From: a virus
Taxonomy: Duplodnaviria > Caudoviricetes
DNA: 50,495 bases
Reading direction: 5' to 3' (one strand)
Virus record (IMG/VR): IMGVR_UViG_3300045284_000404
Location: 1-50,495 of that record
The position numbers and the translations under genes are program-made. The notes beneath the pieces are model-generated. The model had not been told where the DNA came from. It searched no databases and saw only the letters and a list, made by a program, of their open reading frames with translations. How positions within the stretch are numbered: the first letter of the stretch is position 1; each line of letters starts with the position of its first letter. Shown in pieces: positions 1-49,512 of this stretch.

Positions 1-10
1 CCGAAGGGCA

Positions 11-133
11 GACTATCGTGGTTGCAGGCTCTCGTTAGAGCACCCTATCTTGCAGGCTTCCGGACCTGGGGCCGGAACACAACCTGTGGGTTGTGCTCGC
101 GCCACGAGCGGCCTTGGAATGCAACCAGGAGTC
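11..133. ncRNA. Candidate structured RNA or ssDNA element, copy A
   Basis: Nested complementary segments: 19-26/120-127, 11-14/130-133, 28-32/37-41, 54-57/111-114, 58-63/72-77, 78-84/89-95, 96-99/105-108. Confidence 0.45.
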
Positions 134-171
134 CCCATGATTGTACGGTTTCATACCGAGGAAAATAAATA

Positions 172-199
172 TTGACATATTGCCCCATGTCTATAGAGT
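172..199 (+). promoter_or_regulatory. sigma70-type promoter
   Basis: TTGACA (172-177), 16 bp spacer, TAGAGT (194-199), with A-rich upstream sequence GAAAATAAATA. Confidence 0.65.
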
Positions 200-240
200 G
201 ATGTTGTGGCGATTGGCCACGAACAACAAGGAGTAAGGAA

Positions 241-828
241 ATGTCGGTAGTCATTAAGTCGGAAGGCCAGTCCTTCGATCATTCCGCCGGTCACGTTGGT
301 GATGTGTCTTTCGAATTCCGCGTGGAGTCGGCAAGCATGAACGGACAGGTTTTGTCCAATGATGCCATTGAATATATCATCGAGTACGGCATTAAGCAGA
401 ACCTGACTGACGCATATGCCTCGGCGAAAATCACGGCGGAAAAGAAAGGACTCGTCTTGATTGACGTGGCTCGTGATTTGTTCGCGCGTCGACTCAAGGG
501 AATTTTGGATGGCACGCTTTCCATGCGGGACTCGGTATCGCCATTCGAGCGGATTGTGCATGAACTCGCAATGGCCGCATTCCGCAAGCAAGCCAAAATG
601 ACCTTCGCGGCGTTCGTGAAGTCGGTTGATAGCGAGGAAATTGCGCAAGCGGTTTTTGACAAGTTCGTAGCGGCCAATCGAGCCGAGTTCGAACGTGGCG
701 CGAATGAACGGATCGAGTTGAACAAGTCGATCAAAACGACTTCTTCGATTAATGATCTTCTTCAATCCGTCAAGGCCGAGCAGCCCGTGGCAACGACTGT
801 CATAAAGAAGAAAGGAAAGGCTGCATAG
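241..828 (+). CDS. Hypothetical early protein, allele A (195 aa)
   Basis: RBS AAGGAG/AAGGAA and own promoter. Conservation with 49744..50340 includes many synonymous changes, which supports coding. Confidence 0.9.
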   Translation: MSVVIKSEGQSFDHSAGHVGDVSFEFRVESASMNGQVLSNDAIEYIIEYGIKQNLTDAYASAKITAEKKGLVLIDVARDLFARRLKGILDGTLSMRDSVSPFERIVHELAMAAFRKQAKMTFAAFVKSVDSEEIAQAVFDKFVAANRAEFERGANERIELNKSIKTTSSINDLLQSVKAEQPVATTVIKKKGKAA

Positions 829-839
829 TTAGCTAACTA

Positions 840-879
840 ATGATTAGCAGGCTAATGATTTAGTTAGCCTGCTAATCAT
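840..879 (+). terminator. Hairpin, probable terminator
   Basis: 16-bp perfect stem ATGATTAGCAGGCTAA/TTAGCCTGCTAATCAT right after the stop codon. Copy B shows a compensatory change. U-tract is weak. Confidence 0.6.
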
Positions 880-1242
880 CTCCCTCGCATACTACCCAGG
901 GTTGCAGGCTTGGGTAGGGTGGGCGGGGACTTCGACTGACCGGGGCACCCCCCTCGTAGGGGGCCACGCAGCGGCGGCGCTTGCAAAAAGTTCGAAGCGC
1001 ACCAGTTGCTCGAGCCCACTCCCCCACCTGTCCTTCCTTAGGGCACTTGACATCCCCTGCGAATGGGCGCAGACTTCCAATCGGCGAGGACTCTGGGAGG
1101 TTTGTAGCTGGACCGAGCGGGATCTCGTCCTAAGCTGGGATTGAGCGGGAGCGGAGCGGAGCGGAGTAGAGGCCAATCTTTATCCTGCCCTGCTCTCCCA
1201 GTGACTGGGACAGGGAGCGAAAGCTCCAGAGGAACCCAAAGA

Positions 1243-2133
1243 ATGGACCTTGACCTGGATGAACTGGTAGCGCAGATTGGATTGCAGCTTCCTTCCGCGA
1301 GAGGACGACGTCCACGGGAGTCCTCTGTGCCTCTGGAGGTTGGAGAACCACGGCCAATAAGGGCCGAGGACGTGGTGGGGCAGAGCTCGAAGACCCTCCC
1401 AACCTCTACCCCACCATCTCTCCAAAAACTGCGGTCCCGGCACCATCAGCTCGCGCAGCAATTGTCCTCCGGGATGACCGATTTCCAGGTCTCGGTATCC
1501 CTCGGCTACAGTTTGAGCCGAATTTCCATCCTCAAGTCGGATCCAACGTTCCGCGAGCTGCTCTCCTATTACGAGAAACAGCACGAAGCGCTGCATCTGG
1601 ACGTTCAGGAGAGGTTGATCAACCTGGGTCTCGACAGTATTGAGACCCTTCAAAGCCGCCTCGACGACGATCCGGACGAGTTCAGCAATAAGGAACTCCT
1701 GGAGGTAGCGGAAATGGCCCTAGATCGGACAGGCCACGGAAAAAGTTCGACCGTATCTGTGATGCACGGCCTGGACGACGAGACTCACGCGCTTCTGATG
1801 GCCCAGCACGAGGCGCGGAAGCAAGGTCGGGTTCTAAATCTGTCCGATGGGGAGTTTATTGATGTTACAGGAGGCCAGGTTCCAGCTGAAGCTGGGAGCG
1901 AAGCGACCCCAACACATGCAAGTGCAGTCCTCGAACAAGGTCCGGACGATCTCGGCATTGCAGGACGCGAAATTCCTTACCAGCCGACCTCACTTCATCC
2001 CTCTTCCGAGACCCAAGAACGGCTCGACGATCGCGAAGGGGCTGGCGTATCAGAGAAAATGGAGCGATTGGATCAAGGTGCGCAGCTTTTGCTGTTTCCA
2101 ACATCGCCTATTCGCCGGGATCGAGAGGAATGA
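1243..2133 (+). CDS. Probable terminase small subunit
   Basis: HTH-like LRSRHHQLAQQLSSGMTDFQVSVSLGYSLSRISILKSDPTF, then helical segment ending ALDRTGHGK. First gene of the late arm. ATG 1243 with GAGGA RBS preferred to TTG 1141. Confidence 0.65.
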   Translation: MDLDLDELVAQIGLQLPSARGRRPRESSVPLEVGEPRPIRAEDVVGQSSKTLPTSTPPSLQKLRSRHHQLAQQLSSGMTDFQVSVSLGYSLSRISILKSDPTFRELLSYYEKQHEALHLDVQERLINLGLDSIETLQSRLDDDPDEFSNKELLEVAEMALDRTGHGKSSTVSVMHGLDDETHALLMAQHEARKQGRVLNLSDGEFIDVTGGQVPAEAGSEATPTHASAVLEQGPDDLGIAGREIPYQPTSLHPSSETQERLDDREGAGVSEKMERLDQGAQLLLFPTSPIRRDREE

Positions 2134-2485
2134 GATTGAAATCCTGCCAGAGCAGTGGTTCATATATGCGGATGCGAATGGAGTCGGGTATGCGGAGTCG
2201 GATCTGGTGGTGGTCGTTCAACCTCTTCGGTTGGTCATGCTTTTTGAGTGTAAGCGGACGCACACCGATCGAGGTCTGGTGCAGCTGGGTCAACTCTATG
2301 GTCCGCTCTTGGAATACATTTATCCAGGATTTCGAGTTCATGGTCTTCTTGTCTGCAGAAACCTCGAGCCGGGAGTCAACCGGAAGTACCTGCTCGCAGG
2401 AGTCGACGAATGGTGGACTCGAATTGAGGATTCTCTCATTTCAGGAAGGGAAGTTCCCCTTTATTCCATATGTTGGAGAGGCTAG
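1862..2485 (+). CDS. PD-(D/E)XK family nuclease
   Basis: ESDLVVV...LFECKRT...QLGQLY motif pattern; GGAG RBS before ATG 1862 (start uncertain). Confidence 0.7.
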   Translation: MLQEARFQLKLGAKRPQHMQVQSSNKVRTISALQDAKFLTSRPHFIPLPRPKNGSTIAKGLAYQRKWSDWIKVRSFCCFQHRLFAGIERNEIEILPEQWFIYADANGVGYAESDLVVVVQPLRLVMLFECKRTHTDRGLVQLGQLYGPLLEYIYPGFRVHGLLVCRNLEPGVNRKYLLAGVDEWWTRIEDSLISGREVPLYSICWRG

Positions 2486-2515
2486 GGAGGAATCGGAAGG
2501 TGAGGCTGCAGCGAA

Positions 2516-2752
2516 ATGAACCCGTCCGACACAGCACAGATTCTCTCGGCGCTTGGAATCCCGACAGGGCCAGGAATACCCTTACCTGCTGGCGCTGGGA
2601 ACACTTCGATGGCACCCGCGGCGTCGATGGCGGATCCAGCGAGGGCAAATCAGATTCAGCAGCTGATAGCGGGAGCCCTGGGATCGCCGCTGCCGGAAGC
2701 AGCGCAGCTCGGGAAGACCAACAGAGTTCCTCGAGGCGGATTCCCCTCTTAG
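2516..2752 (+). CDS. Hypothetical Ala/Pro/Gly-rich protein
   Basis: Tiles in the operon; GAGG upstream. Confidence 0.6.
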   Translation: MNPSDTAQILSALGIPTGPGIPLPAGAGNTSMAPAASMADPARANQIQQLIAGALGSPLPEAAQLGKTNRVPRGGFPS

Positions 2753-2761
2753 GAGTTCCCA

Positions 2762-3361
2762 ATGCCCAGCAGCAATTGGAAAAGACCCCTAGAGCAGCAG
2801 GAGGAATTAGTCCCCCAGGGTCCTCCGATGTCTGCGGCAGTCAACCCCTTCCGAGACGCCCTGGAGCAATACCCGATCCTGCAAAAACTCGGGCTCAGCA
2901 AGATTACTACACCAAACCCCCAGGACTCAAGAAAATTGGAGTTCTGGCCACCGGGGGAGCCAGGGGATCAGGAATTCCCGAGGCCTCAGGAGTTGCCAGC
3001 GGACCGGCCTGGAGTCCAAATCCTGGACCCGTCGGTGTCCTCGGAGGATGTGGCGGCGGACGTAGTCAGTCACTACTTGGTGCACCAGGATCCCAGGCTG
3101 CAGGGTCTGTACAGCCAGTTCTCTGGAACGTTTCAGGACCCTCAACGTCGCCCTCGCCTGGAGGAAGACTACCAATGGTCACAAATCCACGAGGGGGAGA
3201 AGAGGCCATTCGAGGACTGGCTCCAATCTACGAGGGTTCCGGATTACCTCAGGGGATACCTGTTCCACCAGTGGCCTGAGAAGTCCTACTCGCAGATGTA
3301 CTCGCCGGAGCAAAGGGCGATTCTGGAGCAGATGAGATCGGTTTTACAGACGAAGGAATAA
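2762..3361 (+). CDS. Hypothetical protein (199 aa)
   Basis: AGGAG RBS, operon tiling. Confidence 0.75.
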   Translation: MPSSNWKRPLEQQEELVPQGPPMSAAVNPFRDALEQYPILQKLGLSKITTPNPQDSRKLEFWPPGEPGDQEFPRPQELPADRPGVQILDPSVSSEDVAADVVSHYLVHQDPRLQGLYSQFSGTFQDPQRRPRLEEDYQWSQIHEGEKRPFEDWLQSTRVPDYLRGYLFHQWPEKSYSQMYSPEQRAILEQMRSVLQTKE

Positions 3362-3365
3362 CTCC

Positions 3366-3626
3366 ATGCTACCGCTTCTTGGACTTCTTGGACCACTTCT
3401 TGGAGGCCTTGGCGGTGCAGGAGCTGCAGGAGCAGCAGGAGCAGGAGCAGCAGCCGGTGCAGGTGCAGGTGCTGGAGCTGGACTCCTTGGCGGACTCGCT
3501 CCTGCTATCGGGGCTGTCAAGACTCCCTTGATGCTCGCATCACTTCTTGGGGGTCTTGGTGGCGGAGGCGGAGCTGCCCCAATGGCTCCGCCTGCCCGCC
3601 CAATGCAACAATTTGGTCAATTCTGA
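3366..3626 (+). CDS. Gly/Ala/Leu-rich small protein
   Basis: AAGGA RBS, GAGA low-complexity core, operon tiling. Confidence 0.7.
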   Translation: MLPLLGLLGPLLGGLGGAGAAGAAGAGAAAGAGAGAGAGLLGGLAPAIGAVKTPLMLASLLGGLGGGGGAAPMAPPARPMQQFGQF

Positions 3627-3638
3627 GAGGAGAGAGCA

Positions 3639-4142
3639 ATGGCAGGCGAAAAAGGAGTCCTCATCTACGAAGAGGAAGAGGACATTCGGGAGACTCTAGA
3701 CGAGATCGGCCAGGACGGAGAGGAAGCAGTCCTGACGCCTGGGCCTAACGGCGGCTTCATCCTGACAGGAGAGGACGCCGAGGCCTACGCGAATCACAGA
3801 GGGATTCCCCTCACGGATGTGAGTGACATCGGCACGAAGGGAGGAGAACCGGTTTTGGATTCCATCTCTCCGACCACGGCGGAACTCGGGAGCGCGGATA
3901 TCACTCTGAGCTGCTATGGAACGGGGTTCCGGCCGGAGTCAGTGATCCTGTTCGCCGGGCAACCTGAGCCCATTAACTTCATCTCGAGCCTAGAGATCAC
4001 GACGATTGTGAAACCCTCGCTGGCGTGGGGCGCAGTCACAGTCCCGGTGGCGGTGAAGAACGACGATCTCGTCAGTATGGCGCAGGATTTCACCTTTACG
4101 GAAGCAGCCGCACCGGGCCGGAAGGGATCGAAGCGGAGATAA
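3639..4142 (+). CDS. IPT/TIG (Ig-like) domain protein, possible capsid decoration
   Basis: PVLDSISP...ITLSCYGTGF...FISSLEITTIV...VPVAVKN...FTF is an IPT/TIG pattern; acidic N-terminus. Confidence 0.75.
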   Translation: MAGEKGVLIYEEEEDIRETLDEIGQDGEEAVLTPGPNGGFILTGEDAEAYANHRGIPLTDVSDIGTKGGEPVLDSISPTTAELGSADITLSCYGTGFRPESVILFAGQPEPINFISSLEITTIVKPSLAWGAVTVPVAVKNDDLVSMAQDFTFTEAAAPGRKGSKRR

Positions 4143-4145
4143 CCA

Positions 4146-4715
4146 ATGGCTACGAAGGTCGCAGGAGCAGGCTTGAGAGAGTCCACGAATGTTGTGGATC
4201 TCCAGCTGACTCCGCGACAGCGGGAGCAGATAAGGAATCGGAAAGGCTTCGAAGCACTTAAGAGGCCGAGAATTTTGGCGAAGCCACTTAGTTCTGCACT
4301 CACATATGGGAAGCCGCTGACTAGATTTACTGGGGAAGATCTGGGAGCTCGTAGGGCTCCGGCGTCGTACTGGGCACCAGACTTTGCTCCAGAAGGAGGC
4401 GGCTGGGAGAAGACTTACTCGTATTATCCGAGTACGGCTCAGCGCGTCCGGACGACCTACGGGCAGAACAATCCACCACCAACAAAGTTTGAGCAGCAAA
4501 GTATGGATTTAACTCCATTGTTACAAGTGGATCATCCGGATTTCCAGCCGGTGGTTCAGCCGTTAGGACAAGAGCCGGTGATGCCAGCGTGGGGAGTCGG
4601 ACTGGATCTTTCTCGAGGAGAGCGAACTCGCTGGGGAAACAATCCCATGTCGAGACAGAATCGGCAGATGGAAGAGCTGAAGGCACTTGTGAGAGGACTT
4701 GCTCCTAGTGGCTAA
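4146..4715 (+). CDS. Hypothetical protein (189 aa)
   Basis: GGAG RBS, operon tiling. Confidence 0.7.
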   Translation: MATKVAGAGLRESTNVVDLQLTPRQREQIRNRKGFEALKRPRILAKPLSSALTYGKPLTRFTGEDLGARRAPASYWAPDFAPEGGGWEKTYSYYPSTAQRVRTTYGQNNPPPTKFEQQSMDLTPLLQVDHPDFQPVVQPLGQEPVMPAWGVGLDLSRGERTRWGNNPMSRQNRQMEELKALVRGLAPSG

Positions 4716-5913
4716 CGCGGCGGATCTCAAAGCACGGATCGGAGCGAAGGCTGGCCTCACAGCAAAGCCTACGATCTCTGGTCCTGTGCTTGAGAATTAC
4801 CAGCCGACGTGGGGAGATCGGATAGCCCAGTATATGGGCTCCCTGATGGGGAACTCGAACGCCGGAGTTGCTGACAGCACGAAGTTCTGGCGAGAGAAAA
4901 TCAACCCCATCACTCCCATTATTGGAGAGCAGGAAGCCTTCAAAAGTGCAGCTGGAAAAGCCCACGCTGGAGATCTTCAGGGCGCGATAATGGAGGGAAT
5001 TGGAAGCGTTCCTGGGCCCGGACATGCTGAGGCTATGTTCATCGGGCCAGCGGCCCGAAGTTGGAGCAAATCGGCAGCCAAGGAAGCGAGGCTGATGCTC
5101 AAGGCGAAGGCCGATCCGGAGGAGATCTGGAGAAGGACTCGCACGGCATTTGCCCCGGCGAGTGAAGCACCAGAGGATTGGTTCCCCTTCCAAGAAGTCT
5201 CCTCGAGGAACATGGTGATTGATCCAGACCTCGCGGCGAATATTCCAAAGATCAAAGCTAAGGCAAAGCCAGTCGAGGAGTTCATGGAACACCCGATGTT
5301 CTCGGAATATCCGGGATCGGGGAAGATTCCATTCTGGAGTGATCAGAGGCCGGGAAATGCAGGAGGACTTTACATTGCACCGTTTGGTCCGCCAAGGTCA
5401 CTGAAGTCGATCACCAGTATGGCGATGAATCCGGACGAAGTTGGAGCAAGCACACTCTTCCGAGGGAAACCGACAGGATTGATTGGAGCTGATGTTCACC
5501 CAGATTTGATGTTTCCGGAACAGGTGGCAGAGCACGAGTTCCAGCACGGTGTGACGCATTTAGAGGGTTGGCCAACTGCTCTTTGGTCACATCCAGAGGC
5601 CAATAGGGGAATGATGCAGCCGGGAACTCCAGAGTGGAATCTTTTGGACGCTCTGGAAGGACAGTACGGCAGAGACAGGTATCCAGGGATGCCGAAGCCA
5701 AAGAGGCGGTCTCATGGGTTCTATGAGCACGCAGCAGATGAAACTATGTCGAGGAATTCTGAAAACCGGTTGTTCCTCACAGATGATGAGCGAGGAATGT
5801 ATCCTCCGCACCTGACGCAGGATATTCCCTATAATAAGCAGATCTTGCCGAACCTTGTCCGAGAGCGGCAAGATGCACTGCTGTTGAACGCGCTGGTGGG
5901 ATTGAAGCCATGA
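4708..5913 (+). CDS. LPD23-like domain plus zincin-like metallopeptidase (polyvalent-protein type)
   Basis: MFIGPAARSW...AKEARLML...DPEEIWRRT (LPD23-like), HEFQH zinc motif, YEHAADETMSR...R..LT..ER..YPP tail; GTG 4708 start assumed. Confidence 0.7.
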   Translation: MANAADLKARIGAKAGLTAKPTISGPVLENYQPTWGDRIAQYMGSLMGNSNAGVADSTKFWREKINPITPIIGEQEAFKSAAGKAHAGDLQGAIMEGIGSVPGPGHAEAMFIGPAARSWSKSAAKEARLMLKAKADPEEIWRRTRTAFAPASEAPEDWFPFQEVSSRNMVIDPDLAANIPKIKAKAKPVEEFMEHPMFSEYPGSGKIPFWSDQRPGNAGGLYIAPFGPPRSLKSITSMAMNPDEVGASTLFRGKPTGLIGADVHPDLMFPEQVAEHEFQHGVTHLEGWPTALWSHPEANRGMMQPGTPEWNLLDALEGQYGRDRYPGMPKPKRRSHGFYEHAADETMSRNSENRLFLTDDERGMYPPHLTQDIPYNKQILPNLVRERQDALLLNALVGLKP

Positions 5914-6662
5914 GCGAGGTTTGGGTGGTCGACCTTTCTCATCACAACACCGTGAAGAGCTTCACGAGTGCCGCTGCTGATGGCCTCGTCGGCGTGATCC
6001 ATAAGGCGACCGAGGGGAGCAGCTACGAGGATTCAACTTACAAGTCGCGGGAGTCAGCGGCTCGAGGAGCTGGACTCCTTTGGTCCTCGTACCACTTTAT
6101 GCGGCCCGGCGATCAGAGGCAGCATTTCGGGCATTATCTGCAGTATGCAGAGCCGAGAGAGGGGGAACGAGTTTGCTTGGATTTCGAGGATTCCTCCCTG
6201 ACACTGAATGACCTCTACGTGGCGATGGACTTCCTATCGGAGACTCGGCCAGATGTTCAGCTAACGATTTACTCTGGCAATCTCCTGAAGGAACTCCTCG
6301 GGAGTAAGAACGATGAGCAATTGGCTAAAGCGAGCCTATGGGTGGCTCAGTACACAAGTGCGGCGTCTCCTAGCTGGCCCAAAGGAACCTGGCCCGTCTG
6401 GAGTCTCTGGCAGTACACCGACGGACGCAATGGCGGGACTCCGAGAGACGTTGCGGGACTTACCTCTCCCATCGACTGTAACCGGTTCAATGGAAGTAGG
6501 GAGGCCTGTGAGTCCTGGCTCGGACCCGCCACAACTCCCGAGCCAGCTCCCGAGCCAGAGCCAGAGCCCGAAGTCAAAGTTACCAAGGTCTCGTACGAAG
6601 TCCCGGAAGGGACAAAGCTCGAAATCACCGTGACTGGTGACGGAGAAGTGGAGATAAAGTGA
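5910..6662 (+). CDS. GH25 muramidase (endolysin)
   Basis: VDLSHHN, HKATEG, YHF, LDFE, LWVAQY, LWQYT, DCN motifs; Pro-Glu linker and short C-terminal domain. Confidence 0.92.
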   Translation: MSEVWVVDLSHHNTVKSFTSAAADGLVGVIHKATEGSSYEDSTYKSRESAARGAGLLWSSYHFMRPGDQRQHFGHYLQYAEPREGERVCLDFEDSSLTLNDLYVAMDFLSETRPDVQLTIYSGNLLKELLGSKNDEQLAKASLWVAQYTSAASPSWPKGTWPVWSLWQYTDGRNGGTPRDVAGLTSPIDCNRFNGSREACESWLGPATTPEPAPEPEPEPEVKVTKVSYEVPEGTKLEITVTGDGEVEIK

Positions 6663-7099
6663 TGGGTGAGAATCTAGGATTGCAAAGCACAGCAGGAGCA
6701 CAAGGCAGCCCTGTTCCCCAGAGGACTCCGGCCGACATGGAAGCCCAGCGGAACAAGATGATGATGGCACTAGCGGGAGACCGAGGCAATGCTGCTGCGG
6801 CGGGAGCCCCAGGTGCACCTCCGGCAGCACCAGCTGGTGCTCCGATGCCCGGTGGGATGCCAGCTGTTCCGACAGGGCAGCAAGCACAGGCAGGAGGCCT
6901 GTCGGCTATGGTCGGCCGTATGCCGAGACCGGCCGGAGCCGGAGCCGGAGGAGCTGGAGGCGTTCCTAACTCGAAGGGCATGGGCGGTCCGGGAGGCCGG
7001 ACCACAAACATGCTCATGGGCCTGAAACAAAGGCCAATGGCGAATCCAGCGGCTGGGATCAGTGCTCCGGGAGCAGGACTCATTCCTGGATTAGCGTGA
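6659..7099 (+). CDS. Gly/Ala/Pro/Met-rich disordered protein
   Basis: Start overlaps upstream stop, GGAG RBS. Confidence 0.7.
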   Translation: MMGENLGLQSTAGAQGSPVPQRTPADMEAQRNKMMMALAGDRGNAAAAGAPGAPPAAPAGAPMPGGMPAVPTGQQAQAGGLSAMVGRMPRPAGAGAGGAGGVPNSKGMGGPGGRTTNMLMGLKQRPMANPAAGISAPGAGLIPGLA

Positions 7100-7329
7100 T
7101 GGGACAGGTTAAGGGAAATCCCGGCACGACGAAAGCTGCGATGAATCAGTATCGGCAGAACTATGGGGGGAACAAGAATTCGACTCAGCCGATTGACTTC
7201 CAGGCCTTGGCAAATATGTTTATGAGGCCTGGACCCTCACAAGCAACCCCGGCTCCGGTGGCACCTCCAGCACCAGCGGGTCCACGGTATGAGAATGCAG
7301 CTGGAGTAATGCCCTGGGCGCTAAAATAG
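7096..7329 (+). CDS. Hypothetical small protein
   Basis: Start-stop overlap with upstream gene. Confidence 0.65.
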   Translation: MMGQVKGNPGTTKAAMNQYRQNYGGNKNSTQPIDFQALANMFMRPGPSQATPAPVAPPAPAGPRYENAAGVMPWALK

Positions 7330-7338
7330 GAGAAAGAA

Positions 7339-7881
7339 ATGGCGACGACGATTAGCAAACCTGGAACTGGACTCGGTGGAGCAACGCAAGAGCCGACTGT
7401 GACTGAACCTCAGCCCTCGCCGGGACCCGTCAAGGCCAAGGATAGTCCCCCGCACGATCAAGAAAGAACTCCGAGGACTGGAGTGGTTGGGGATCCGGTT
7501 GGAACCTGGCCCTCGAAGGAGGCAGTCGATCCGCATCCCCTGACACCGGAGGACACAAGACGGGCTGAGAAGCCAGCGGGCCTAGTAGCTCCCAGCCGGG
7601 AGTATGGCGCTGGGTTTTCGAAGGAGGCTCGAGAGAAACTACAGGCAAAAGCGATGGGAAGAGAATACGATCCGAATGAACCTGCGAACGTCGCGAACAT
7701 TCCGACAGGTGCGGTTCCGGTTGAGACTGAGGACACGACTGGAAATCCCACCGGTGAGCAAAATCCGCCGACACCAGTCCCGGGGACCAATCCACCGACT
7801 AAGAATGTCACGGAACCCGAGAAGCCTCCAGTGGAGCCCTTGGTGAAGTCGAGTTCAACGGCAAAGGATTCGACTTCCTGA
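7339..7881 (+). CDS. Pro/Thr/Glu-rich disordered protein
   Basis: AGGAG RBS; stop overlaps TerL start (TGATG). Confidence 0.75.
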   Translation: MATTISKPGTGLGGATQEPTVTEPQPSPGPVKAKDSPPHDQERTPRTGVVGDPVGTWPSKEAVDPHPLTPEDTRRAEKPAGLVAPSREYGAGFSKEAREKLQAKAMGREYDPNEPANVANIPTGAVPVETEDTTGNPTGEQNPPTPVPGTNPPTKNVTEPEKPPVEPLVKSSSTAKDSTS

Positions 7882-9554
7882 TGGCGATCCTGGCTCCCGA
7901 GTTGAAGGAAGAGATCTTTGCGGAAGGACTGGCAGACCCGGTTTACTTCTGCAGAGTGATCTTGGGTGAGTGGTTCCCGAAGGCCATGCCTTGGTTTCAT
8001 CGGGGACTTCTTGCGCTTTTGACTCGGGAGACGGACTTTCTTTTGAGGTTTGGGCGGGAAGAGTGGAAAGCAGAGTCGGGATTTGTCTGGGATCAATCAG
8101 GGCTAGACAAAATAATCAAGCATTTCGTCTGGCGAATGGACCCAAACGACCCAGAGGCACCAGAATTGCCCCTGTTCGTGCAGAAAGAGGGAAAAATCCT
8201 GCTTCAGGTAAGTCAAATTCAGCAGGAGATCATTCCACGCGGCTTCAGCAAGACCACCCTCTGCAATGCCGTGGTCATCCGTGCGGTTGTATACCGGCTA
8301 AAACGGTTTATTGCCTTGATCGCAGAGACTGGACCCCACGCCGCGGCACAGCTTTCCAATGTGAAGACACAACTCGGGGAGAATGAGCTTCTTATTCAGG
8401 TCTATGGGGCATTGGCACCAGACCGGCAGCATCCGAATCCCTGGCGTGAGAACGAGGCTCAGGCACTGAATGGGATCTGGATGATCGCCCGAGGCCGAGG
8501 CGGGCAGATCCGGGGTCTGAATAGGAATGCCAAGCGGCCAGACCTCATCATCGTGGACGACGTTGAGGATGAGGAGTCGGTATTGACTCCAGAACAGCGG
8601 AAGAAGACTGTTAAGTGGATCATGTCGGCTGTTAGACCGGCACTTCCTCGGAATGATCCGAATGCCTTTATCCAGATCCTCGGGACAATGCTGCACCCAG
8701 AGTGTATGTTGGTCACACTGAGCAAGGATCCGACCGTGATCACAGTGAAGTTCGGGGCGATCGACCCAGATAAGGACATGCTCTGGGCTGCGCACATGAG
8801 CCGGAAGGGGTATGATAGTCTGAGGGAATCTTACCGGAGTGTGGGTGCCCTTGCGGACTTCAGCCGGGAATTCGACTCCGCGATTTCTAATGACGAGCAG
8901 CAGATCTTCGATACTTCGAGGATTGTTTACCAGGTAAAGGGAATAAAGCAGTTCGTCGGGCGAGCAATAGCCATTGATCCAGCTATCAGCGAGGAACTCT
9001 CTGCTGACTTCTGTGCCTTCGCCGTGGTGGGGATGGAAGATACCGGGCTCATCCATGTTCTTGACTTCTACATGAAACGAGGAATGAACCCGAGGGAGCA
9101 GATTGACAAGTTCTTCGAGCTGAAGGTAATGTGGGAATGCACAGCTGCAGGAGTGGAGAGTGTTGCCTACCAGAAAGCCCTTGTTCATCTCATTAGAGAG
9201 GAAATGTTCCGGAAGGCACGGCAGTATGGAGATCACTCTTACTTCGAAGTTACGCCAATTACTCACTCGAGGGATGCGGACAAAATCACCCGAGTTCAGG
9301 GCGTCTTGGCTCCTCGGTACTCTGCCGGATACATTACTCATCAGCGTCGGTTCCCAGACCTGGAAGCCCAATTGCAAGATTGGCCGTACGGTAAGGTTGA
9401 TGGACCAGATGCTGTTGCGATGGCCATCACTTTGCTTGACCCGTATGCCGGTACTGCACTCGGCTCGGACGTTCTTGGTAAGAAAATTGGAGAAGATAGC
9501 TGGAACTCAGACGAAGAATTGATCGGTGGGGACTGGAGAGTTAGAGGGATCTGA
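7881..9554 (+). CDS. terL: Terminase large subunit
   Basis: Walker A IPRGFSKTT, Walker B LIIVDDVE, LGT coupling motif, RNase H-like AIDPA...D...DGPDA. Confidence 0.95.
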   Translation: MAILAPELKEEIFAEGLADPVYFCRVILGEWFPKAMPWFHRGLLALLTRETDFLLRFGREEWKAESGFVWDQSGLDKIIKHFVWRMDPNDPEAPELPLFVQKEGKILLQVSQIQQEIIPRGFSKTTLCNAVVIRAVVYRLKRFIALIAETGPHAAAQLSNVKTQLGENELLIQVYGALAPDRQHPNPWRENEAQALNGIWMIARGRGGQIRGLNRNAKRPDLIIVDDVEDEESVLTPEQRKKTVKWIMSAVRPALPRNDPNAFIQILGTMLHPECMLVTLSKDPTVITVKFGAIDPDKDMLWAAHMSRKGYDSLRESYRSVGALADFSREFDSAISNDEQQIFDTSRIVYQVKGIKQFVGRAIAIDPAISEELSADFCAFAVVGMEDTGLIHVLDFYMKRGMNPREQIDKFFELKVMWECTAAGVESVAYQKALVHLIREEMFRKARQYGDHSYFEVTPITHSRDADKITRVQGVLAPRYSAGYITHQRRFPDLEAQLQDWPYGKVDGPDAVAMAITLLDPYAGTALGSDVLGKKIGEDSWNSDEELIGGDWRVRGI

Positions 9555-11590
9555 TGGTAGCGAAATTTGGCGTACCTGAGAGCGAGAAGCAGCCTAAGTT
9601 CCGAGAGCCGGATAAGGGCAAGCTTCCCATCGATCTGCTGGCTCCGAACTCTCCAAGACACTCTGCCGTAAAGGATTACTTGATCCAGAGGCTCGAAGCG
9701 TCTGAACGGGCGATGGGGAAGAGGTATTCGAGATGGCGACTCAACGAACTGCAATTCCAGGCGTACATCTCTCTCGCGGAACACGAGAAGATTCTCAAGA
9801 GCGCAAAACTCTCACGGTCTATGCCGGAGATTTCAAGCCTGGTGATCCCTTACTCGTACTCGACTATCATGGCAATTGTCACGTATCTATTGCAGGTCTT
9901 TGCTGGATCAGATCCCATCTTCAAGGTGAACGCAACGAAGTCTTCCTCGATGATGGCCCAAGAGTACATGGAGCTTGCCCTCAAGCACAATACCACGCAT
10001 ACTCGGATGGTCCTGAAAATCTTTCAGTTCCTGTTGGACAGTCAGATCTACAATCTGGGAGTGATGCGGAACCTCTGGAGTGTGGAGGAGCGCTTTACTA
10101 CAGTGCTGAAACCAGCGATGATGCCGGGGCCGATGGGAATGATGCCGGATTTCAGCCAGCCGAGAACAAGGCAGCGGGAGATGGCAGTGGTGTTCGAGGG
10201 GACAAACGTCACGAACGTTGATCCCTTTATGTTCTTCCCGGATCCTCGAGTGGCACCAGTGGAAGTGAGCCGGAAGGGGGAATTTGTCTTCTGGCGGGAC
10301 TTCACCGGGAGGCACATTCTCGAGGAGCAGCAGTCAAAAGGCATGATCAAGTTCCTGGATGACGTTGGAGACCGGCCGAAGGCCTCGATGTACACCGGGG
10401 ACTCAGACGTGCCGAACAGCAATCGGAACTCGGCGGTCAAGGAAGATTCCTCCAATCCGAACCGGCGACCAGACGGAGCACTGGAGGATTTCATCCAGCT
10501 AGATCAGGGATCGATCGCGATCATTCCGAGCAAACTGGGCTTGGCCGACTCTGACGTTCCTGAAAAGTGGCTCTTTACCATTGCGAACAAAAACCAGATC
10601 ATTCAGGCGGAGCCCCTCGACCTCGATCATGGGAACCATCCGGTCTGTGTCACAGAGCCATATTCCATGGGCTACAGTCCGGGTGGAATGTCGATGGTGG
10701 AGATGCTGGAGCCGATTCAGGAAGGCATGTCGTGGCTGCTGAATAGCCACATCCACAATATCAGAGGCATTATCAACAATTCCTTCATCCTCGATCCCAA
10801 CGCCGTGGATATGACGAGTTTCAAAGATGGAAGACCTGGAAAGCTCATTAAGCTCAAGCCATCTGCAGTGGGTCGTGATGTGCGGACAGTCATCCAGCAG
10901 CTGCAAATGTACGATGCGACCGCGCAGCACGTTACGGATATTGAAGTCCTCAGAAGGCTCGGAGATACAATTTCGGCTGTCAATGATAATCTGCGAGGAG
11001 TGCAACAAGCGGGGGGACGTAAGACTGCAACTGAGGTCAGGACGGCAACAGAAAACGGTGCTTCAAGACTGGTTATGCAGGCTCGGCTTATTTCGTCCCA
11101 GGCCATGGTGGACCAAGCGGAGCAGATGTGCATAAACATGCAGCAGCTGACGACAGAGCCATTCTTTATGAAGGTCGTGGGGCCGGAGGGAATGGACAAG
11201 CTGATGCAGATCGGGCCAGAGAACCTGATCGGGGACTTCAACTTCCCGGTTACAGATGGCACGCTGCCACTGGATAAGATCGCGATTCTTGATGTCTGGA
11301 AAGAGATCTTCCAGATCGTGGCGACGAACCCGATGCTCCAACAGCAATACGATCTGAGCCAGATTTTCGACTTCGTGGCGGAATTGAGCGGAGCACGGAA
11401 CTTGGATAAATTCAAAATGGCACCTCCGATGGGGATGCCAGGGATGCCGCCAGGAATGCCTGGGGATCCGAATGCGATGCAGGGACAAGCGGAGGCTGGA
11501 AATGTCGTACCTATCTTTGGTGGGCCTGGACCCAATGGAGGAAGAGGCATTCCTGACTTTGCAGCAGGTGGAGGCGGACCTCCATCGTGA
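9554..11590 (+). CDS. Portal protein
   Basis: Follows TerL, 678 aa, VDPFMFFPDP, KTATEV motifs, Pro/Gly-rich tail. Confidence 0.9.
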   Translation: MVAKFGVPESEKQPKFREPDKGKLPIDLLAPNSPRHSAVKDYLIQRLEASERAMGKRYSRWRLNELQFQAYISLAEHEKILKSAKLSRSMPEISSLVIPYSYSTIMAIVTYLLQVFAGSDPIFKVNATKSSSMMAQEYMELALKHNTTHTRMVLKIFQFLLDSQIYNLGVMRNLWSVEERFTTVLKPAMMPGPMGMMPDFSQPRTRQREMAVVFEGTNVTNVDPFMFFPDPRVAPVEVSRKGEFVFWRDFTGRHILEEQQSKGMIKFLDDVGDRPKASMYTGDSDVPNSNRNSAVKEDSSNPNRRPDGALEDFIQLDQGSIAIIPSKLGLADSDVPEKWLFTIANKNQIIQAEPLDLDHGNHPVCVTEPYSMGYSPGGMSMVEMLEPIQEGMSWLLNSHIHNIRGIINNSFILDPNAVDMTSFKDGRPGKLIKLKPSAVGRDVRTVIQQLQMYDATAQHVTDIEVLRRLGDTISAVNDNLRGVQQAGGRKTATEVRTATENGASRLVMQARLISSQAMVDQAEQMCINMQQLTTEPFFMKVVGPEGMDKLMQIGPENLIGDFNFPVTDGTLPLDKIAILDVWKEIFQIVATNPMLQQQYDLSQIFDFVAELSGARNLDKFKMAPPMGMPGMPPGMPGDPNAMQGQAEAGNVVPIFGGPGPNGGRGIPDFAAGGGGPPS

Positions 11591-11786
11591 GACGGCATTT
11601 GTGTGGATTTTGCGGTGGCTGGACAAGGTGGACGGTGACCTGAAGGGTCAGATCCTGCACGGAAATTCGATGGAACAGCCTGTGGAGATCGTAAAGTGGC
11701 AGGCAAAACGGGAGCTGATCGAGTCCCTCTTCGGCGAGATCGAGAACATAAGGAACTTGGAAAATGGCAATCAAGGGATTCAGTGA
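11502..11786 (+). CDS. Small helical head-module protein
   Basis: GGAGG RBS before ATG 11502; sits between portal and scaffold as in many podoviruses. Confidence 0.7.
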   Translation: MSYLSLVGLDPMEEEAFLTLQQVEADLHRETAFVWILRWLDKVDGDLKGQILHGNSMEQPVEIVKWQAKRELIESLFGEIENIRNLENGNQGIQ

Positions 11787-12765
11787 AGAAATCGTACAAG
11801 CGATGGACTTTGACCCATTTGCAGAGCTTGGCTCCGATGGCGGAACCGAGAACAGAGCACCTCGGGCACCAGTCCCAGGAGCGCGGGACGGAACCGGAGG
11901 AGGGCAGCAGCCCCAACAAGTTGCGGTCCCTACCAAAGATCCAGTAACTGGGAGATTCCTGCCTGCAGGAGGGACTCCTACACAAAGGGCGAAAGCCCAA
12001 ACCCTAGGGCGAGATGTCAGCCCTGACGGCGCAAGACAAGGACAGCCGAGGGAAGCCCAACGGGTACCCACTGCCCCGCCTGTGAGGCCGGACGAACCAG
12101 TAGATCCGCAAGGAGGAACTCCTCCGGCTGGGAACTCTGTGCAGGAACTGATGGAGAGGGTGAAACAGGCTGGTCCTGTTATGCCGACTACACCAGTTCA
12201 GCAAGAGCCTGGACCTGGACAGAGACCTCAACCACAATTCCCACGGTATGACTACTCGAAGCCTTGGACTGATCAGAAAGTGCAGTTGCCAGCAGAATTG
12301 CTGGATGCGATCTTTCACGAAGACCGCTCTGTGGCTGCACAGGGGATGGATGTACTCGTGAATACGATGTACAACTCTCTCGCGAATGAGATCCATACCC
12401 GGATCGCTGCCATCGTGCATCAGGTGCCTCAGGTTCTGGAAAATATGACGGACATGAGGATGGGACAGAGGCAACTGAGGGACAAGTTCTATGGGCAGTT
12501 TCCAGAACTTGCCAACCCTCAGGGGATGCAGACGGTCTACAGCATCGCGCAAAATGTGGCGGCGCTGTATCAGAACATGGGCCAGGAAGTAGATCCGATG
12601 TCTGACGACTTTGTGAACTACGTTGGAGAACAGGCCAGGCAAGTGCTTGGGATTGCTCCAGCGCCACAGAGGCAGCCTCGGAGACAGTTCCAGCCGGGTG
12701 GTGGTACTCGGAATGGTGGAGGATCGAACGGGAACCCCTTTATGGAGGCCATAGGTTTGGCCTAA
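11764..12765 (+). CDS. Capsid scaffolding protein
   Basis: Position before the capsid gene, disordered N-half with RDPVTGRF-like motif (KDPVTGRF), helical C-half. Confidence 0.75.
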   Translation: MAIKGFSEEIVQAMDFDPFAELGSDGGTENRAPRAPVPGARDGTGGGQQPQQVAVPTKDPVTGRFLPAGGTPTQRAKAQTLGRDVSPDGARQGQPREAQRVPTAPPVRPDEPVDPQGGTPPAGNSVQELMERVKQAGPVMPTTPVQQEPGPGQRPQPQFPRYDYSKPWTDQKVQLPAELLDAIFHEDRSVAAQGMDVLVNTMYNSLANEIHTRIAAIVHQVPQVLENMTDMRMGQRQLRDKFYGQFPELANPQGMQTVYSIAQNVAALYQNMGQEVDPMSDDFVNYVGEQARQVLGIAPAPQRQPRRQFQPGGGTRNGGGSNGNPFMEAIGLA

Positions 12766-12777
12766 GGCGAAGCGACA

Positions 12778-14043
12778 ATGGCTATTATTGGACTGAGAGA
12801 CACCTCGGGGTTCACTACAAATGGTGAACGTCCGCAGAACTGGCGGGAGACCTTGCTGCTGCTGTATCCGAACAGCGCCGAAGCGGCGAAGGCTCCTCTC
12901 ACCGCCCTGACATCTCTAATGAAGGAGAAAAGCACAGACGATCCGCACTTTCACTGGTTCACAAAAACGCTCGATGATCGACGGCTTAAAGTCTCAGCCG
13001 CACTCACCGCGGGAACGCCGGGAGCAGCTGCGACTCTTACGATAGACTCGACTTACAAGCCAGCGATTATCACGTATGAGAACACTGTGCTTCTAGTGGA
13101 GCAAACCGGGGAAATGCTGTTGGTGGTTGCAGATCCGACCACGAATACAGCGATTTCCGTGACTCGTGGGTTTGCTGGGTCGACGGCAGCGGCGTGGGAT
13201 CCGGCAGTTGCCGGGACTAACCCCTACGTGCTGATTATTGGTTCAAGCATGGAGGAAGGCTCAATGCCTCCGACGGGCGTGAACTTCGATCCGGCGGAAT
13301 TGTACAACTATACTCAGATCTTCCGGCGGACCCTCGAAATTACCCGTACCGCAGCCAAGACTCGGCTCCGGACTGGCGATGCTGTGAAGGAAGCCAGAAG
13401 GGAGTGCCTGGAATACACCTCGGTGGACATGGAGCGGGCCTTCATTCTGGGCCGCAGATCTTTGAACACCTACAAGGGCAAGCCACAGAGGACGACTGGT
13501 GGTGTGGTCTGGCAGATCCAGCAGGCAGCACCGCAGAACATCTGGACCGTGCCGACGACTGGCCAGATCGACATGAACACCATTGAGACGAAGCTGGAGA
13601 CCTTGTTCCGGTACGGCTCGTATGAAAAGATGGCGTTCGCAGGAAATGGTGCCCTGTTGGCGATCCAGCAGGTCGTGAGGAAGAACACGAACTACCAGAT
13701 CTACGCGAATGAAAAAGAGTACGGGATGAAGATCACTCGACTGACCACTCCCTTTGGGGAACTGGCCATCAAGGTTCATCCCTTGTTCACGCAGAACGCC
13801 GGTGGAACGACTGCGGGTACTGCGTTTACTGCCATGAGCAACTGGATGCTCATTCTGGACATGGAGAGGGTCCGGTATCGGTATCTCACTGACTCGGACC
13901 TTGACTACCAGACCAAGCTTGAGCCGAATGGGCTGGATGGAATGCAATCTGGATACCTGGCGGAATGCGGGATCGAGATTGAGTTCGCTGAAACTTGTCA
14001 CCTGTGGAAGAATCTGGTGGCAGGTATTAAGGACACACCGTAA
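12778..14043 (+). CDS. Major capsid protein (SU10/DUF5309-like)
   Basis: EEGS..P, YNYTQIFR, DMERAFILG, RTTGG, TPFGEL..HPLF, ECGIE motifs. Confidence 0.9.
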   Translation: MAIIGLRDTSGFTTNGERPQNWRETLLLLYPNSAEAAKAPLTALTSLMKEKSTDDPHFHWFTKTLDDRRLKVSAALTAGTPGAAATLTIDSTYKPAIITYENTVLLVEQTGEMLLVVADPTTNTAISVTRGFAGSTAAAWDPAVAGTNPYVLIIGSSMEEGSMPPTGVNFDPAELYNYTQIFRRTLEITRTAAKTRLRTGDAVKEARRECLEYTSVDMERAFILGRRSLNTYKGKPQRTTGGVVWQIQQAAPQNIWTVPTTGQIDMNTIETKLETLFRYGSYEKMAFAGNGALLAIQQVVRKNTNYQIYANEKEYGMKITRLTTPFGELAIKVHPLFTQNAGGTTAGTAFTAMSNWMLILDMERVRYRYLTDSDLDYQTKLEPNGLDGMQSGYLAECGIEIEFAETCHLWKNLVAGIKDTP

Positions 14044-14087
14044 GTTAGCGTGGGACCGTTCACATAATGTGAATGAGCCCACTTAAC
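14044..14087 (+). promoter_or_regulatory. Dispersed motif copy 1, folded as a hairpin after the capsid gene
   Basis: GTGGGACCGTTCACATAATGTGAATGAGCCCAC. Confidence 0.6.
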
Positions 14088-14109
14088 CTGGACTTCTGGG
14101 AGTACCCCG

Positions 14110-14739
14110 ATGAAGTTGGAAGATTTCCACTCGATGGTTAGCTTCGAGCTGAAGCGGGGTACTTCGCAGGACGCGATGATACCAGCATACGTGAAGCAGG
14201 CGGTCAGTTTTTTAGAGCGAAATGCTCCCCTGAAGTATATGGAAGAGATGGTAATGGTGCAGCTGGAGCCTGGGGACCAGCTGGTGGACTTCGTTTGGAG
14301 CTTTAGGAACTGGAGATACCTACGGTATGATGCGGACGGAGAGTGGTGCTATCTGCAGAAGAGAGATCCGCGGGAGGAATTGACTCCGGCGGGACCAGAG
14401 GCACCGACAAGATATTCCCAGATCGGGATGAGGTATATTCGGTTTAATGCACCCTGGAGGGGAACGGTGAACCTCCCCTTGGAGGGAATTGTTTATAAAT
14501 TTACTGATTGGCAAACGACGAGACCAGATTTCCGGCACTTTTTGCTGGAATTCGGTAGTGATCTGCTCCTCTACCAGACCATGTTAAGGATCGGGGTTGC
14601 GATTAAAGACCCTAGGTTGGACGCACTGTATCGGCCCGTCAGGGACGAGGCACTGAAGACATTCATGAGCATGGATACAGATGCGGAGTTTGATGGATCG
14701 ACAGATGACACAATGGTCTACGGGGGCATCTACGAGTAA
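14110..14739 (+). CDS. Head-tail adaptor / tail tubular protein A-like
   Basis: ~200 aa after the capsid gene, P..YSQIG...IRF..P and LLEFGSDLLLY patterns. Confidence 0.7.
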   Translation: MKLEDFHSMVSFELKRGTSQDAMIPAYVKQAVSFLERNAPLKYMEEMVMVQLEPGDQLVDFVWSFRNWRYLRYDADGEWCYLQKRDPREELTPAGPEAPTRYSQIGMRYIRFNAPWRGTVNLPLEGIVYKFTDWQTTRPDFRHFLLEFGSDLLLYQTMLRIGVAIKDPRLDALYRPVRDEALKTFMSMDTDAEFDGSTDDTMVYGGIYE

Positions 14740-14923
14740 GCCAGGGATCTGGTATCCAGGGTACTCTTTGGATCGGAAGATGCAAGGAGTGAAATCTCAT
14801 ACCCATATGGTCCCTTTGGGGTTTTGTGCGCTGGCGGTTATGCAGAGAAACCGGTATTTTTCTCTCGCGATAGCGGGTCGAGAGCGGAGCTTGCAATCCG
14901 ATGGTCTTTCAGCTTCTGAATAA
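14681..14923 (+). CDS. Possible small hypothetical protein
   Basis: Fills a 160-bp gap and overlaps both neighbours; no recognisable motif. Confidence 0.35.
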   Translation: MRSLMDRQMTQWSTGASTSKPGIWYPGYSLDRKMQGVKSHTHMVPLGFCALAVMQRNRYFSLAIAGRERSLQSDGLSASE

Positions 14924-17129: not shown

Positions 17130-18505
17130 AACCGCTGATTGACATACAACCCGGCGAGGTGATGGGGTCTGGTGTTCTGCCAGATGCCATGAACGAAGAG
17201 ACTGTAGTATGGTCCGAGCTGAACAACGTAGTGATCGAGGCAGCAGGGATTGGGAGGCCTCTGGGAGCAGTTCGGATAGAGGATGTGACGGAGGACATAA
17301 CTCACATCGTTACACAGTCTATCACTGGCGTTGGCCCGCGAGCTACGGTTTCTGGAACCACCGCAGTGTGGGAGTGGACTGGAGGGGCTTCGCTGGCGTT
17401 GATAAATGTTCCCTGGACGACTGGAGGATACCCGGTACTGGAGACCTGGGGCGATTGGACCGTAGGAACCAACAACAAAGAGAAGCCACAGATCCGGAAA
17501 AAGACTGGGACTTTTGGAGATCTGGCCGGGATCAACTTCGCTCGGTGTAAGCAACTTATCAGGAAGTCTCCATATATGCTGGCGCTAAACACGGACATTG
17601 GGGTGACTGAAGTAAAGTGGTGTACAGCTAGCGATGTGGAAACCTGGCTTCCGAAGCCGGAGAACTCGGCTGGGGACTTCGTGATCCGGGATGTTGCAGG
17701 GGAGATCAAAGGTGGGTGTCCCCTAGGGGATGCGATTGCTATCTACTCGGATGAAGCGCTCACTATGGCGACATACGTTGGACTTCCGTATGTCTTCAGC
17801 CTCGTGACTACGCTCTATGGGATCGGTATCTACGGGCCTAAGAGTGTCTGTGCCTTCGCACGGAAGAACTACGGGATTGGACCACAGGGAATCTTTGTCA
17901 CGGACGGTTATACGTTCGAACTCCTCGGTGATGACAACTTCAGAAAGTGGCTCAAGCGGAGTGTCGATGACTCCCTGTGGGACCAGATCACAGTGTTCCA
18001 TAATGAGTTCACAGACACCGTGGAGTTTCACTTTCCAGACAAGGCAAATCCTGGCCTCTACATCACCTTGTACTGGAAGATCGACGCAAACAAGTTCACT
18101 ACTGGAGATCTCCGGATAAACGCTGCCATGGAGCGGGAGGCATTCAAGTTTCCCCTCGTAGCCGTGGGCAAGAGCCTGTGCTATATGACTCGAGATGTTC
18201 CGACGTGGAACGGGATTTTGTTCAAGAGCCGAGCCCAGACGAAGTGGATGGACTGCGGGACAGTGGATAATGACAAATTCCTGGATCATGTGTTCCTGAA
18301 TGGACAGATTGAGAACCTGGACCTTCAGGTAGAGATGGAAGACATGGACCAGGTTCAACGGGAAGTCTTTGCGATGCAGGACGCAGAAAGGAGGAACTTT
18401 ATTCTTCAGGAGGATCACAAGATCCGGGTAACTCTGGAGGCTGATGGGGACTTCCACCTTAGTCGCCTCCGCCTTTTTGGTGACGTTGGTGCCTCTACGA
18501 CATGA
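17126..18505 (+). CDS. Tail tubular/nozzle (P22 gp10-like stabilisation) protein
   Basis: Beta-rich 459 aa, VKWC...W.P..ENSAGDF, YVGLPYVF patterns. Confidence 0.75.
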   Translation: MKPLIDIQPGEVMGSGVLPDAMNEETVVWSELNNVVIEAAGIGRPLGAVRIEDVTEDITHIVTQSITGVGPRATVSGTTAVWEWTGGASLALINVPWTTGGYPVLETWGDWTVGTNNKEKPQIRKKTGTFGDLAGINFARCKQLIRKSPYMLALNTDIGVTEVKWCTASDVETWLPKPENSAGDFVIRDVAGEIKGGCPLGDAIAIYSDEALTMATYVGLPYVFSLVTTLYGIGIYGPKSVCAFARKNYGIGPQGIFVTDGYTFELLGDDNFRKWLKRSVDDSLWDQITVFHNEFTDTVEFHFPDKANPGLYITLYWKIDANKFTTGDLRINAAMEREAFKFPLVAVGKSLCYMTRDVPTWNGILFKSRAQTKWMDCGTVDNDKFLDHVFLNGQIENLDLQVEMEDMDQVQREVFAMQDAERRNFILQEDHKIRVTLEADGDFHLSRLRLFGDVGASTT

Positions 18506-26282: not shown

Positions 26283-26288
26283 GTGGGA

Positions 26289-26320
26289 GTGGGACTATTC
26301 ACATAATGTGACCGTGGGAT
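26289..26320 (+). promoter_or_regulatory. Dispersed motif copy 2
   Basis: GTGGGACTATTCACATAATGTGACCGTGGGAT in an intergenic gap. Confidence 0.65.
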
Positions 26321-26347
26321 TTCATTCTGTGATTATGGGAGACGAGG

Positions 26348-27447: not shown

Positions 27448-27459
27448 AGGAGAAAGGAA

Positions 27460-29126: not shown

Positions 29127-29134
29127 GGCTCACC

Positions 29135-29757: not shown

Positions 29758-29768
29758 GAGGTTCTGCC

Positions 29769-38010: not shown

Positions 38011-38020
38011 TTTCCTCTCC

Positions 38021-38062: not shown

Positions 38063-38070
38063 AATGGGAG

Positions 38071-49509: not shown

Positions 49510-49512
49510 ATT

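Follow-up and report, generated by a model that had tools for sequence, protein, structure and literature searches.

An inexact end repeat in a soil phage record, most likely two strain alleles of one single-copy gene

The IMG/VR virus record IMGVR_UViG_3300045284_000404 is a stretch of 50,495 nucleotides (nt), analysed here over its whole length (the window), from an uncultured soil podovirus-like phage. Its two ends carry related copies, each of about 1 kb, of one promoter-gene-hairpin unit. Our analysis indicates that this end repeat is probably an assembly overlap, in which a single-copy gene is shown as the alleles of two co-occurring strains (allele A at the left end, allele B at the right end); the repeat is present in the record and, most likely, is not a feature of any one genome. 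What really lies at the locus is a single-copy gene, polymorphic and mosaic, whose phage family is unnamed. The record has a CheckV completeness of 100% and belongs to the class "linear" (no end repeats detected). Since the end repeat is inexact, its ends coming from two strains, it was missed by repeat-based end detection and the record was called linear. The parts of the two copies are as follows.

1..9, plus strand: nine non-matching bases before the repeat, unlike the sequence upstream of the right-hand copy (alignment)
10..219, plus strand: upstream block, copy A, with TTGCAGGCT at 22-30 and 50-58
172..199, plus strand: sigma-70-like site TTGACA-16-TAGAGT, 10/12 to consensus (a consensus match only)
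241..828, plus strand: allele A, 195 residues (P0001)
840..879, plus strand: 17-bp hairpin after allele A, without a T-run (inverted self-match; fold)
892..989, plus strand: conserved tail block, copy A, with TTGCAGGCT (902-910) in a hairpin loop and a G-rich run after the hairpin
49468..49518, plus strand: copy of a ~45-nt motif adjoining the right-hand upstream block (repeat families D7 and D8; four-copy alignment)
49513..49722, plus strand: upstream block, copy B
49744..50340, plus strand: allele B, 198 residues (P0002)
50348..50379, plus strand: hairpin after allele B, 12 pairs (listed on the minus strand; same palindrome)
50398..50495, plus strand: tail block, copy B, at the end of the record

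Self-alignment pairs 10-989 with 49513-50495 at 83% identity (E 2.2e-300), and the repeat search recovers the same pair of blocks. The upstream blocks (10-219 and 49513-49722) differ at 4 of 210 positions (31, 35, 48 and 100), and the tail blocks (892-989 and 50398-50495) show zero differences over 98 nt, the last mismatch being 891/50397. Between these flanks, the two open reading frames (ORFs) share 152 of 195 residues (78%), with 43 of the 195 aligned codons changed, and their nucleotides differ at 135 of 585 positions (23%). Counted in bins of 70 nt, identity is 96, 99, and 100% along the upstream block, 66, 77, 76, 79, 80, 73, 76, 82, 76, and 86% across 220-919, and 100% again in 920-989, with sharp steps at 219/220 and 891/892. 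The stretch from the promoter-like site to the ATG also differs between the copies, bin 220-289 being identical at only 46 of its 70 positions. A diverged core inside conserved flanks is thus real and far above chance. This is the picture given by an earlier sequence-only reading of the window, which had described an end repeat of about 1 kb enclosing a diverged gene, an upstream flank with four differences in 210 nt, an identical last 98 bp, ORFs differing at 40-45 of ~195 residues and unlike ribosome-binding-site regions, and the alignment agrees with it throughout. The short motif which that reading had placed on both sides of the gene is TTGCAGGCT, found at 22, 50, and 902 in the left-hand copy and at 49525, 49553, and 50408 in the right-hand one. 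These six matches, all inside the copies, are the only ones in the window, where 0.44 would be expected and where 0 of 100 shuffles reached six.

Evidence on how the alleles are distributed among strains came from the Logan contigs of four public soil runs (X1 to X4), compared with positions 1-3000 of the window at 80% likeness. Logan depth is one mean per contig and is unsuited to ranking genes or parts of genes, and the X1 results given here are among the pieces and loose ends listed. Of the words sampled from 1-6000, 0.92 are present in run X1, which may be the sample that yielded the window record. In it, a contig of 6,253 nt at depth 14.2 arrives from the replication arm and continues into a B-type gene, its loose end before position 10 being equal to window 49483-49512. 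The exact allele A is found on a separate contig (326-789, 0 differences) at a depth of 3.6, and the backbone contig covering 1666-3000 has a depth of 11.6. The tail bin 901-1000, with a depth of 17, is approximately the sum of A and B and is not twice the backbone. A variant of 989-1119, with 16 differences and 4 gaps, has a depth of 3.6, equal to that of allele A. Run X4, from another study, has a contig of 1,304 nt (depth 8.81) which spans 1-1105 with the whole of allele A. Every listed difference between this contig and the window falls within 1019-1064, and those at 1024, 1025, 1029, 1039, 1053, 1054, and 1056 are shared with the X1 minor variant. No B-like piece is present among the six X4 pieces, though contigs can miss rare variants. 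Of the remaining runs, X2 gave a single chance-like piece of 38 nt, and X3 covers 516-1963 in pieces only.

These contigs behave as strain alleles do: in X1 the depths are unequal and sum to about that of the shared flank (roughly, from contig means), in X4 one allele occurs alone in single copy, and the minor allele is tied to its own neighbouring version by depth in X1 (3.6) and by the contig itself in X4. Of the two, B is the major allele and has a physical link to the replication arm, and A is the minor allele, with its own downstream version. Because the minor downstream variant accompanies A in both X1 and X4, allele A in the window is joined to a foreign downstream version, and the change of strain in the record probably falls within 892-1018, where the sequences are identical. 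None of the joints listed for the four runs leads back from the tail block into the leader (~989 to ~1-10); they number four and are all "skips" from diverged B contigs of X1. The sequence-only reading had left two options, tandem self-contained cassettes with the contig broken between them, or two co-occurring strains joined at an assembly bubble, and had proposed read depth to choose between them. As contig means, the X1 depths are fractional (A 3.6, B 14.2, backbone 11.6); these depths, the A-only state of X4 and the absent back-joint favour the second option, and the first finds no support in the contigs of the four runs.

The most probable course of events, as we reconstruct it, would be the following. 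The genome would carry one promoter-gene-hairpin unit heading the rightward (lysis and structural) arm and would close on itself in assembly, being circular, circularly permuted or terminally redundant. The sample would hold at least two strains with old, diverged alleles between near-identical flanks. The assembler may have started in the minor allele A and entered the major backbone within the identical tail block; after one round of the genome it would have passed through allele B, whose words were still unused, and halted where B rejoins the shared tail block. The biological genome would then be of ~49.5 kb (~990..50495) with allele B, and 1-989 would come from another strain. The alleles presumably persist and are reshuffled through ordinary homologous recombination, both in the flanks and within the gene.

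The right end of the record fits this course in its exact position, since it lies exactly 98 nt past the last B-specific base, and a tail of 98 nt after such a base is what the last 99-letter word holding it would leave. We infer that the right end is the break of a word-graph assembler at k = 99, where a side path rejoins a used path; MetaHipMer may be an assembler whose word sizes end at 99. This stop is equally expected if the units are tandem; what it shows is that the record stops on the right for reasons of assembly and not at a physical end. metaSPAdes has been run with -k 33,55,77,99,127 at the Joint Genome Institute (JGI) (PMC10434106), and MetaHipMer v1 at default parameters and MEGAHIT from 23 to 123 are described elsewhere (bioRxiv 10.1101/2023.03.06.531389); in the parts of these two sources available to us, neither identifies which assembler produced the window record.

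The end overlap of circular or permuted genomes in metagenome assemblies offers the closest parallel. As there, both ends of the record cover one locus, and removal of one copy leaves a complete gene order (241-31519 and 31834-49244); the case differs in that the overlap is 83% identical instead of exact, with ends from different strains. Two further alleles in public collections, P0003 and P0004 (see below), lie on contigs of 1,346 and 2,296 nt. The contig of P0003 is too short for two units, so a single unit is present there, and short contigs are the expected yield of a variable stretch in mixed populations.

Several points weigh against an assembly overlap of strain alleles. Logan contigs prove presence and not absence, so that the lack of a back-joint, like the lack of B in X4, is a weak negative; the depths are means taken from contigs, not from reads; and 7 pieces and 5 loose ends of X1 fall outside the listing. 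Since X1 is possibly the source sample of the window, its support is not independent. No piece carries allele B into 990 and onwards, this link resting on matching depths, and the reading of the X4 contig begins at position 1, to the right of the 199 nt that would show whether the upstream side of allele A is a version of the end of the replication arm. Moreover, the comparison of A with B leaves the left end of the record (position 1) unaccounted for, and bases 1-9 resemble 992-1000 at 7 of 9 positions (8 of 11 for 1-11 against 992-1002; hand count). By the same kind of hand count, bases 1-9 are alike at 6 of 9 positions to the end of the adjoining ~45-nt motif (49501-49509), and nine bases are too few to decide between tandem units and strain alleles. 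These bases are probably a remnant of strain A's own upstream region: the 1,304-nt contig of X4 matches from position 1 and extends ~199 nt further left, and since it matches from there, bases 1-9 are real in an A-bearing strain.

If the two units were instead tandem paralogues, each genome would carry a B unit and then an A unit, both complete from leader and promoter through gene and hairpin to tail block, and the contig would simply have been broken between them. The likeness of bases 1-9 to 992-1000 could then mark a duplication junction; a distant member of the family at 41789-42487 shows that the gene has been duplicated before; and both copies are intact and under purifying selection. 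Such an arrangement would place both copies at backbone depth, which is not what the X1 contig means show, since A stands at 3.6 beside a B of 14.2 and a backbone of 11.6 and the tail block is not doubled. It also sits poorly with X4, which carries A without any B-like piece, with the lack of a back-joint among the joints listed for the four runs, and with the 1,346-nt contig of P0003, which has no room for two units. In addition, the tail block together with three shared bases comes to ~101 nt, and longer words would leave no reason to break there. We therefore regard tandem units as quite unlikely.

It is highly improbable that the gene lies inside a genuine direct terminal repeat of ~980 bp, with ends drawn from two strains and physical ends near 10 and 989. 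Similarity does begin and stop near the record ends in direct orientation, as in linear phages with such repeats, and terminal repeats also occur in some tailed phages that have a DNA polymerase of their own. However, copies of a direct terminal repeat within one genome are identical and these are only 83% alike, with 135 of 585 coding positions differing, so the sequence-only reading was right that this is not an ordinary repeat of that kind. Nor do the depths look doubled, as far as contig means go: the unit stands at 14.2-17 against 11.6-14.2 for the backbone in X1, where contigs cross both repeat boundaries. The B-type contig of X1 passes from the replication arm into the upstream block without a stop, and the X4 contig reaches 199 nt beyond position 1, so that 1-10 is no end in those contigs.

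A site-specific gene cassette, in which the flanking TTGCAGGCT motifs would act as recombination sites for allele exchange, is equally hard to credit: the motif is confined to the unit flanks, two upstream and one downstream (6/6 against 0.44 expected), and the identity steps are sharp, but these steps lie at 220 and 891 and not at the motifs (22, 50, and 902), so that the exchange is not fixed at the repeats as in an integron-like cassette. PHROG and Pfam scans, of 36 and 48 ORFs respectively, turned up no integrase or recombinase, mosaic alleles with switches within the gene indicate homologous exchange, and no relatives in which the unit is present or absent were recovered.

Returning to strain alleles of one gene, the divergence between A and B corresponds to 0.91 synonymous (dS) and 0.16 nonsynonymous (dN) changes per site over 195 codons. 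The resulting dN/dS of 0.175 implies that both alleles are functional and kept by purifying selection, and judged from these rates the alleles appear old relative to their flanks. The DNA-level breakpoints between A and B are those of this allele pair alone. Searches of 5.8 billion proteins returned only two homologues of A and B, namely P0003 (91% to A) and P0004 (84%). At the 45 alignment columns where A and B are unlike, P0003 is A-like at 31, B-like at 11 and neither at 3, and P0004 is B-like at 22, A-like at 18 and neither at 5, being closer to B in its N-terminal part and to A at the C-terminus. Such mosaic alleles carry what looks like the signature of homologous exchange, within the gene and its flanks, that is, of ordinary phage mosaicism. 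In public collections, the exact A protein is present on three contigs from three sources, and the exact B protein was found in the window only. No close relatives were recovered when P0001 was searched against viral contigs, by tblastn against the phage GenBank collection, or with the four-allele alignment against metagenome contigs; likewise, exact words of the tail block and of the leader were absent from viral, metagenome and genome contigs, and the family pattern had no match in genome contigs. The searched contig collections may omit records at or near the window's genome, so that these blanks are no sign of rarity.

The sequence-only reading had further held that, even with two strains, the gene would be swapped as a cassette between conserved flanks. 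This is supported in part: the core has 77% nucleotide identity and a dS of ~0.9 between flanks of 98-100%, its divergence exceeds the ~4% seen across 1105-2992 between the window and the strain of X4 that bears A (61 mismatches in 1,499 nt; hand sum of four pieces), and two more mosaic alleles exist. On the other hand, other patches nearby are also diverged, two X1 minor variants being ~12% apart from the window (16/131 and 30/259), and no recombinase was found among the ORFs scanned. These nearby patches point to ordinary phage mosaicism with no special cassette mechanism, and the locus is a divergence hot spot, yet one patch within a patchwork. Phage mosaic modules are exchanged by recombination at conserved boundaries. 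The locus resembles them in its strongly diverged gene between near-identical flanks and in its further mosaic alleles, and differs from them in that it concerns one soil phage population, one locus and a few patches, with no donor lineage found. Beyond the tail block, the untranslated gap contains a tandem stretch of GAGCGGA type (1146-1170 and 1211-1241), and in one contig of X1 a total of 23 nt (5+1+1+16) is missing around 1211-1226, so that the length of the gap varies from strain to strain.

The unit itself may share some features with morons, the self-contained promoter-gene-terminator units found in phage genomes. The sigma-70-like site (10/12) is identical in copy B at 49675-49702, and a hairpin after the gene is conserved. 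In its stem, a C-G pair of copy A is a G-C pair in copy B (read from the alignment), and this compensatory change suggests that the stem is in use. The fold of 826-1000 is unusual (z = -4.61), and the hairpin at 840-879 is a possible terminator or RNA-stabilising stem. Unlike in morons, it lacks a T-run, and neither it nor the one at 50348-50379 was called as a plus-strand terminator in the terminator scan. No relatives that lack the unit at this place, as would be expected of a moron, were recovered, and since the family is found at arm boundaries in other phages, the gene seems to be an ordinary part of the phage gene set, not an add-on. The structured leader that had been proposed upstream of the gene was not confirmed, as the fold of 10-240 is not unusual (z = -1.59). 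Rfam models run on 1-1300 gave only two chance-level microRNA rows for the hairpin (E 0.5 and 0.98), and over the whole window none matched at the gathering score.

The ~45-nt motif next to the right-hand upstream block has four copies in the window, all intergenic and in the same orientation (14043-14090, 26279-26329, 42514-42564, and 49468-49518). In the four-copy alignment, it consists of GTGGGAC, a palindrome-like core TTCACAT.ATGT.A and CCGTGGGA. Three copies lie just upstream of plus-strand genes (14110, 26308, and the allele B unit), and the remaining one is discussed with the paralogue below. With its TTCACA, 17-nt spacer and T/A-rich hexamer, the motif could, judged from its layout, be a phage-specific promoter or regulator site.

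Neither allele matched Pfam or PHROGs at or above threshold. A profile built from the four alleles found 37 representatives (E <= 0.001) in 1.84 billion proteins, all of 136-229 residues. They share a motif around residues 44-62, EY..YG..Q.L.DSYA, plus G91, and in several members an acidic or proline-rich linker leads into a short basic tail that closes in two small residues. Scanning 41 family members gave one PHROG of unknown function and one low-complexity Pfam family. The AlphaFold2 model is confident (mean predicted local distance difference test, pLDDT, of 86.3) and places helices after a beta hairpin at the N-terminus. In Foldseek searches of PDB and BFVD nothing matched at E <= 0.001, the best VIA-align Z was 5.6 and led to no assignment, and the ESM Atlas returned unnamed viral clusters only, at 0.87. 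An HMG-box was not assigned, as its several VIA-align rows (Z 4.2-4.8 over residues 98-170) are inside the noise range of the tool. From its position and promoter, one might tentatively guess, with low confidence, at an early-expressed host-interaction or nucleic-acid-associated protein.

The distant member of the family within the same genome is the following.

41789-42487, minus strand: P0042, distant paralogue in the replication arm (family-profile hmmsearch E 6.4e-11; hhalign to the family alignment, probability 95.6%, E 1.2e-8, 17% identity)

One copy of the ~45-nt motif (42514-42564) lies directly upstream of P0042. Directly downstream of it, a 75-residue ORF (41480-41707, minus strand) scores 53.6 bits (cut-off 27; E 2.6e-14) with PF24729, the Acb2/Tad1 hairpin domain of Pfam, whose family consists of anti-defence signal sponges. 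It can be proposed that the promoter-proximal gene is an old balanced polymorphism of the soil phage population, in which at least four alleles (dS ~0.9) are reshuffled, within the gene and between near-identical flanks bearing the private TTGCAGGCT motif, because the protein would meet a variable host factor (e.g., a defence system). As the paralogue adjoins this Acb2/Tad1-like gene, the family would then represent a new early host-interaction or anti-defence class; we consider this proposal unlikely.

The surroundings of the family gene were also compared in six distant IMG/VR loci, using a narrower alignment for the scan, as the whole-family alignment was too diverse. Each locus has one family gene within the stretch compared. 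In three of them (L005, L006, and L008) the gene is followed, 3-4 kb downstream and on its own strand, by a phrog_1967 helicase, and in three (L004, L007, and L008) a large terminase gene is present on the opposite strand, on the other side of the family gene. From this gene order, the family tends to occupy the boundary between packaging and replication arms. In L004, L005, and L007 (3/6), the family gene is within ~500 nt of a contig end, an anecdotal observation; assemblies may often break at this locus, or it may sit near genome ends.

In the window, PHROG and Pfam scans outline two gene arms, a rightward one from 241 to ~31519 and a leftward one at 31834-49244. The gene with alleles A and B is the first of the rightward arm and adjoins the divergent region 49245-49743. 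The following genes were assigned in the rightward arm by these scans.

5910-6662, rightward: GH25 endolysin
7881-9554, rightward: large terminase
9554-11590, rightward: portal
12778-14043, rightward: major head protein

Tail and tail-fibre proteins and a DNA-ejection protein were also assigned to this arm. The leftward arm encodes a primase, a split family-A DNA polymerase, a ParB-methyltransferase fusion, a Sak4-like annealing protein, an exonuclease and a helicase. The polymerase is in two ORFs (33047-34717 and 35040-36110, both minus strand), which match successive parts of phrog_17, and an ORF with DUF1937 (34647-35039) sits between them. The tail-fibre ORF 27672-29126 has collagen-like Gly-X-Y repeats at 27900-28270, with direct repeat families of 9, 18, and 36 nt. 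A run of 18 A lies at 49340-49357, in the divergent intergenic region between the arms. The G+C content of the window is 54.9%, and no tRNA was found in it.

A record listed as linear and complete is thus probably ~1 kb too long and contains a gene from another strain. Imperfect end overlaps of this kind evade circularity checks based on repeats and inflate gene counts. What is gained for the biology of the phage is modest, namely a divergence hot spot where the two arms meet, and a gene product from an unnamed family of proteins of ~140-230 residues that is possibly worth a functional test.

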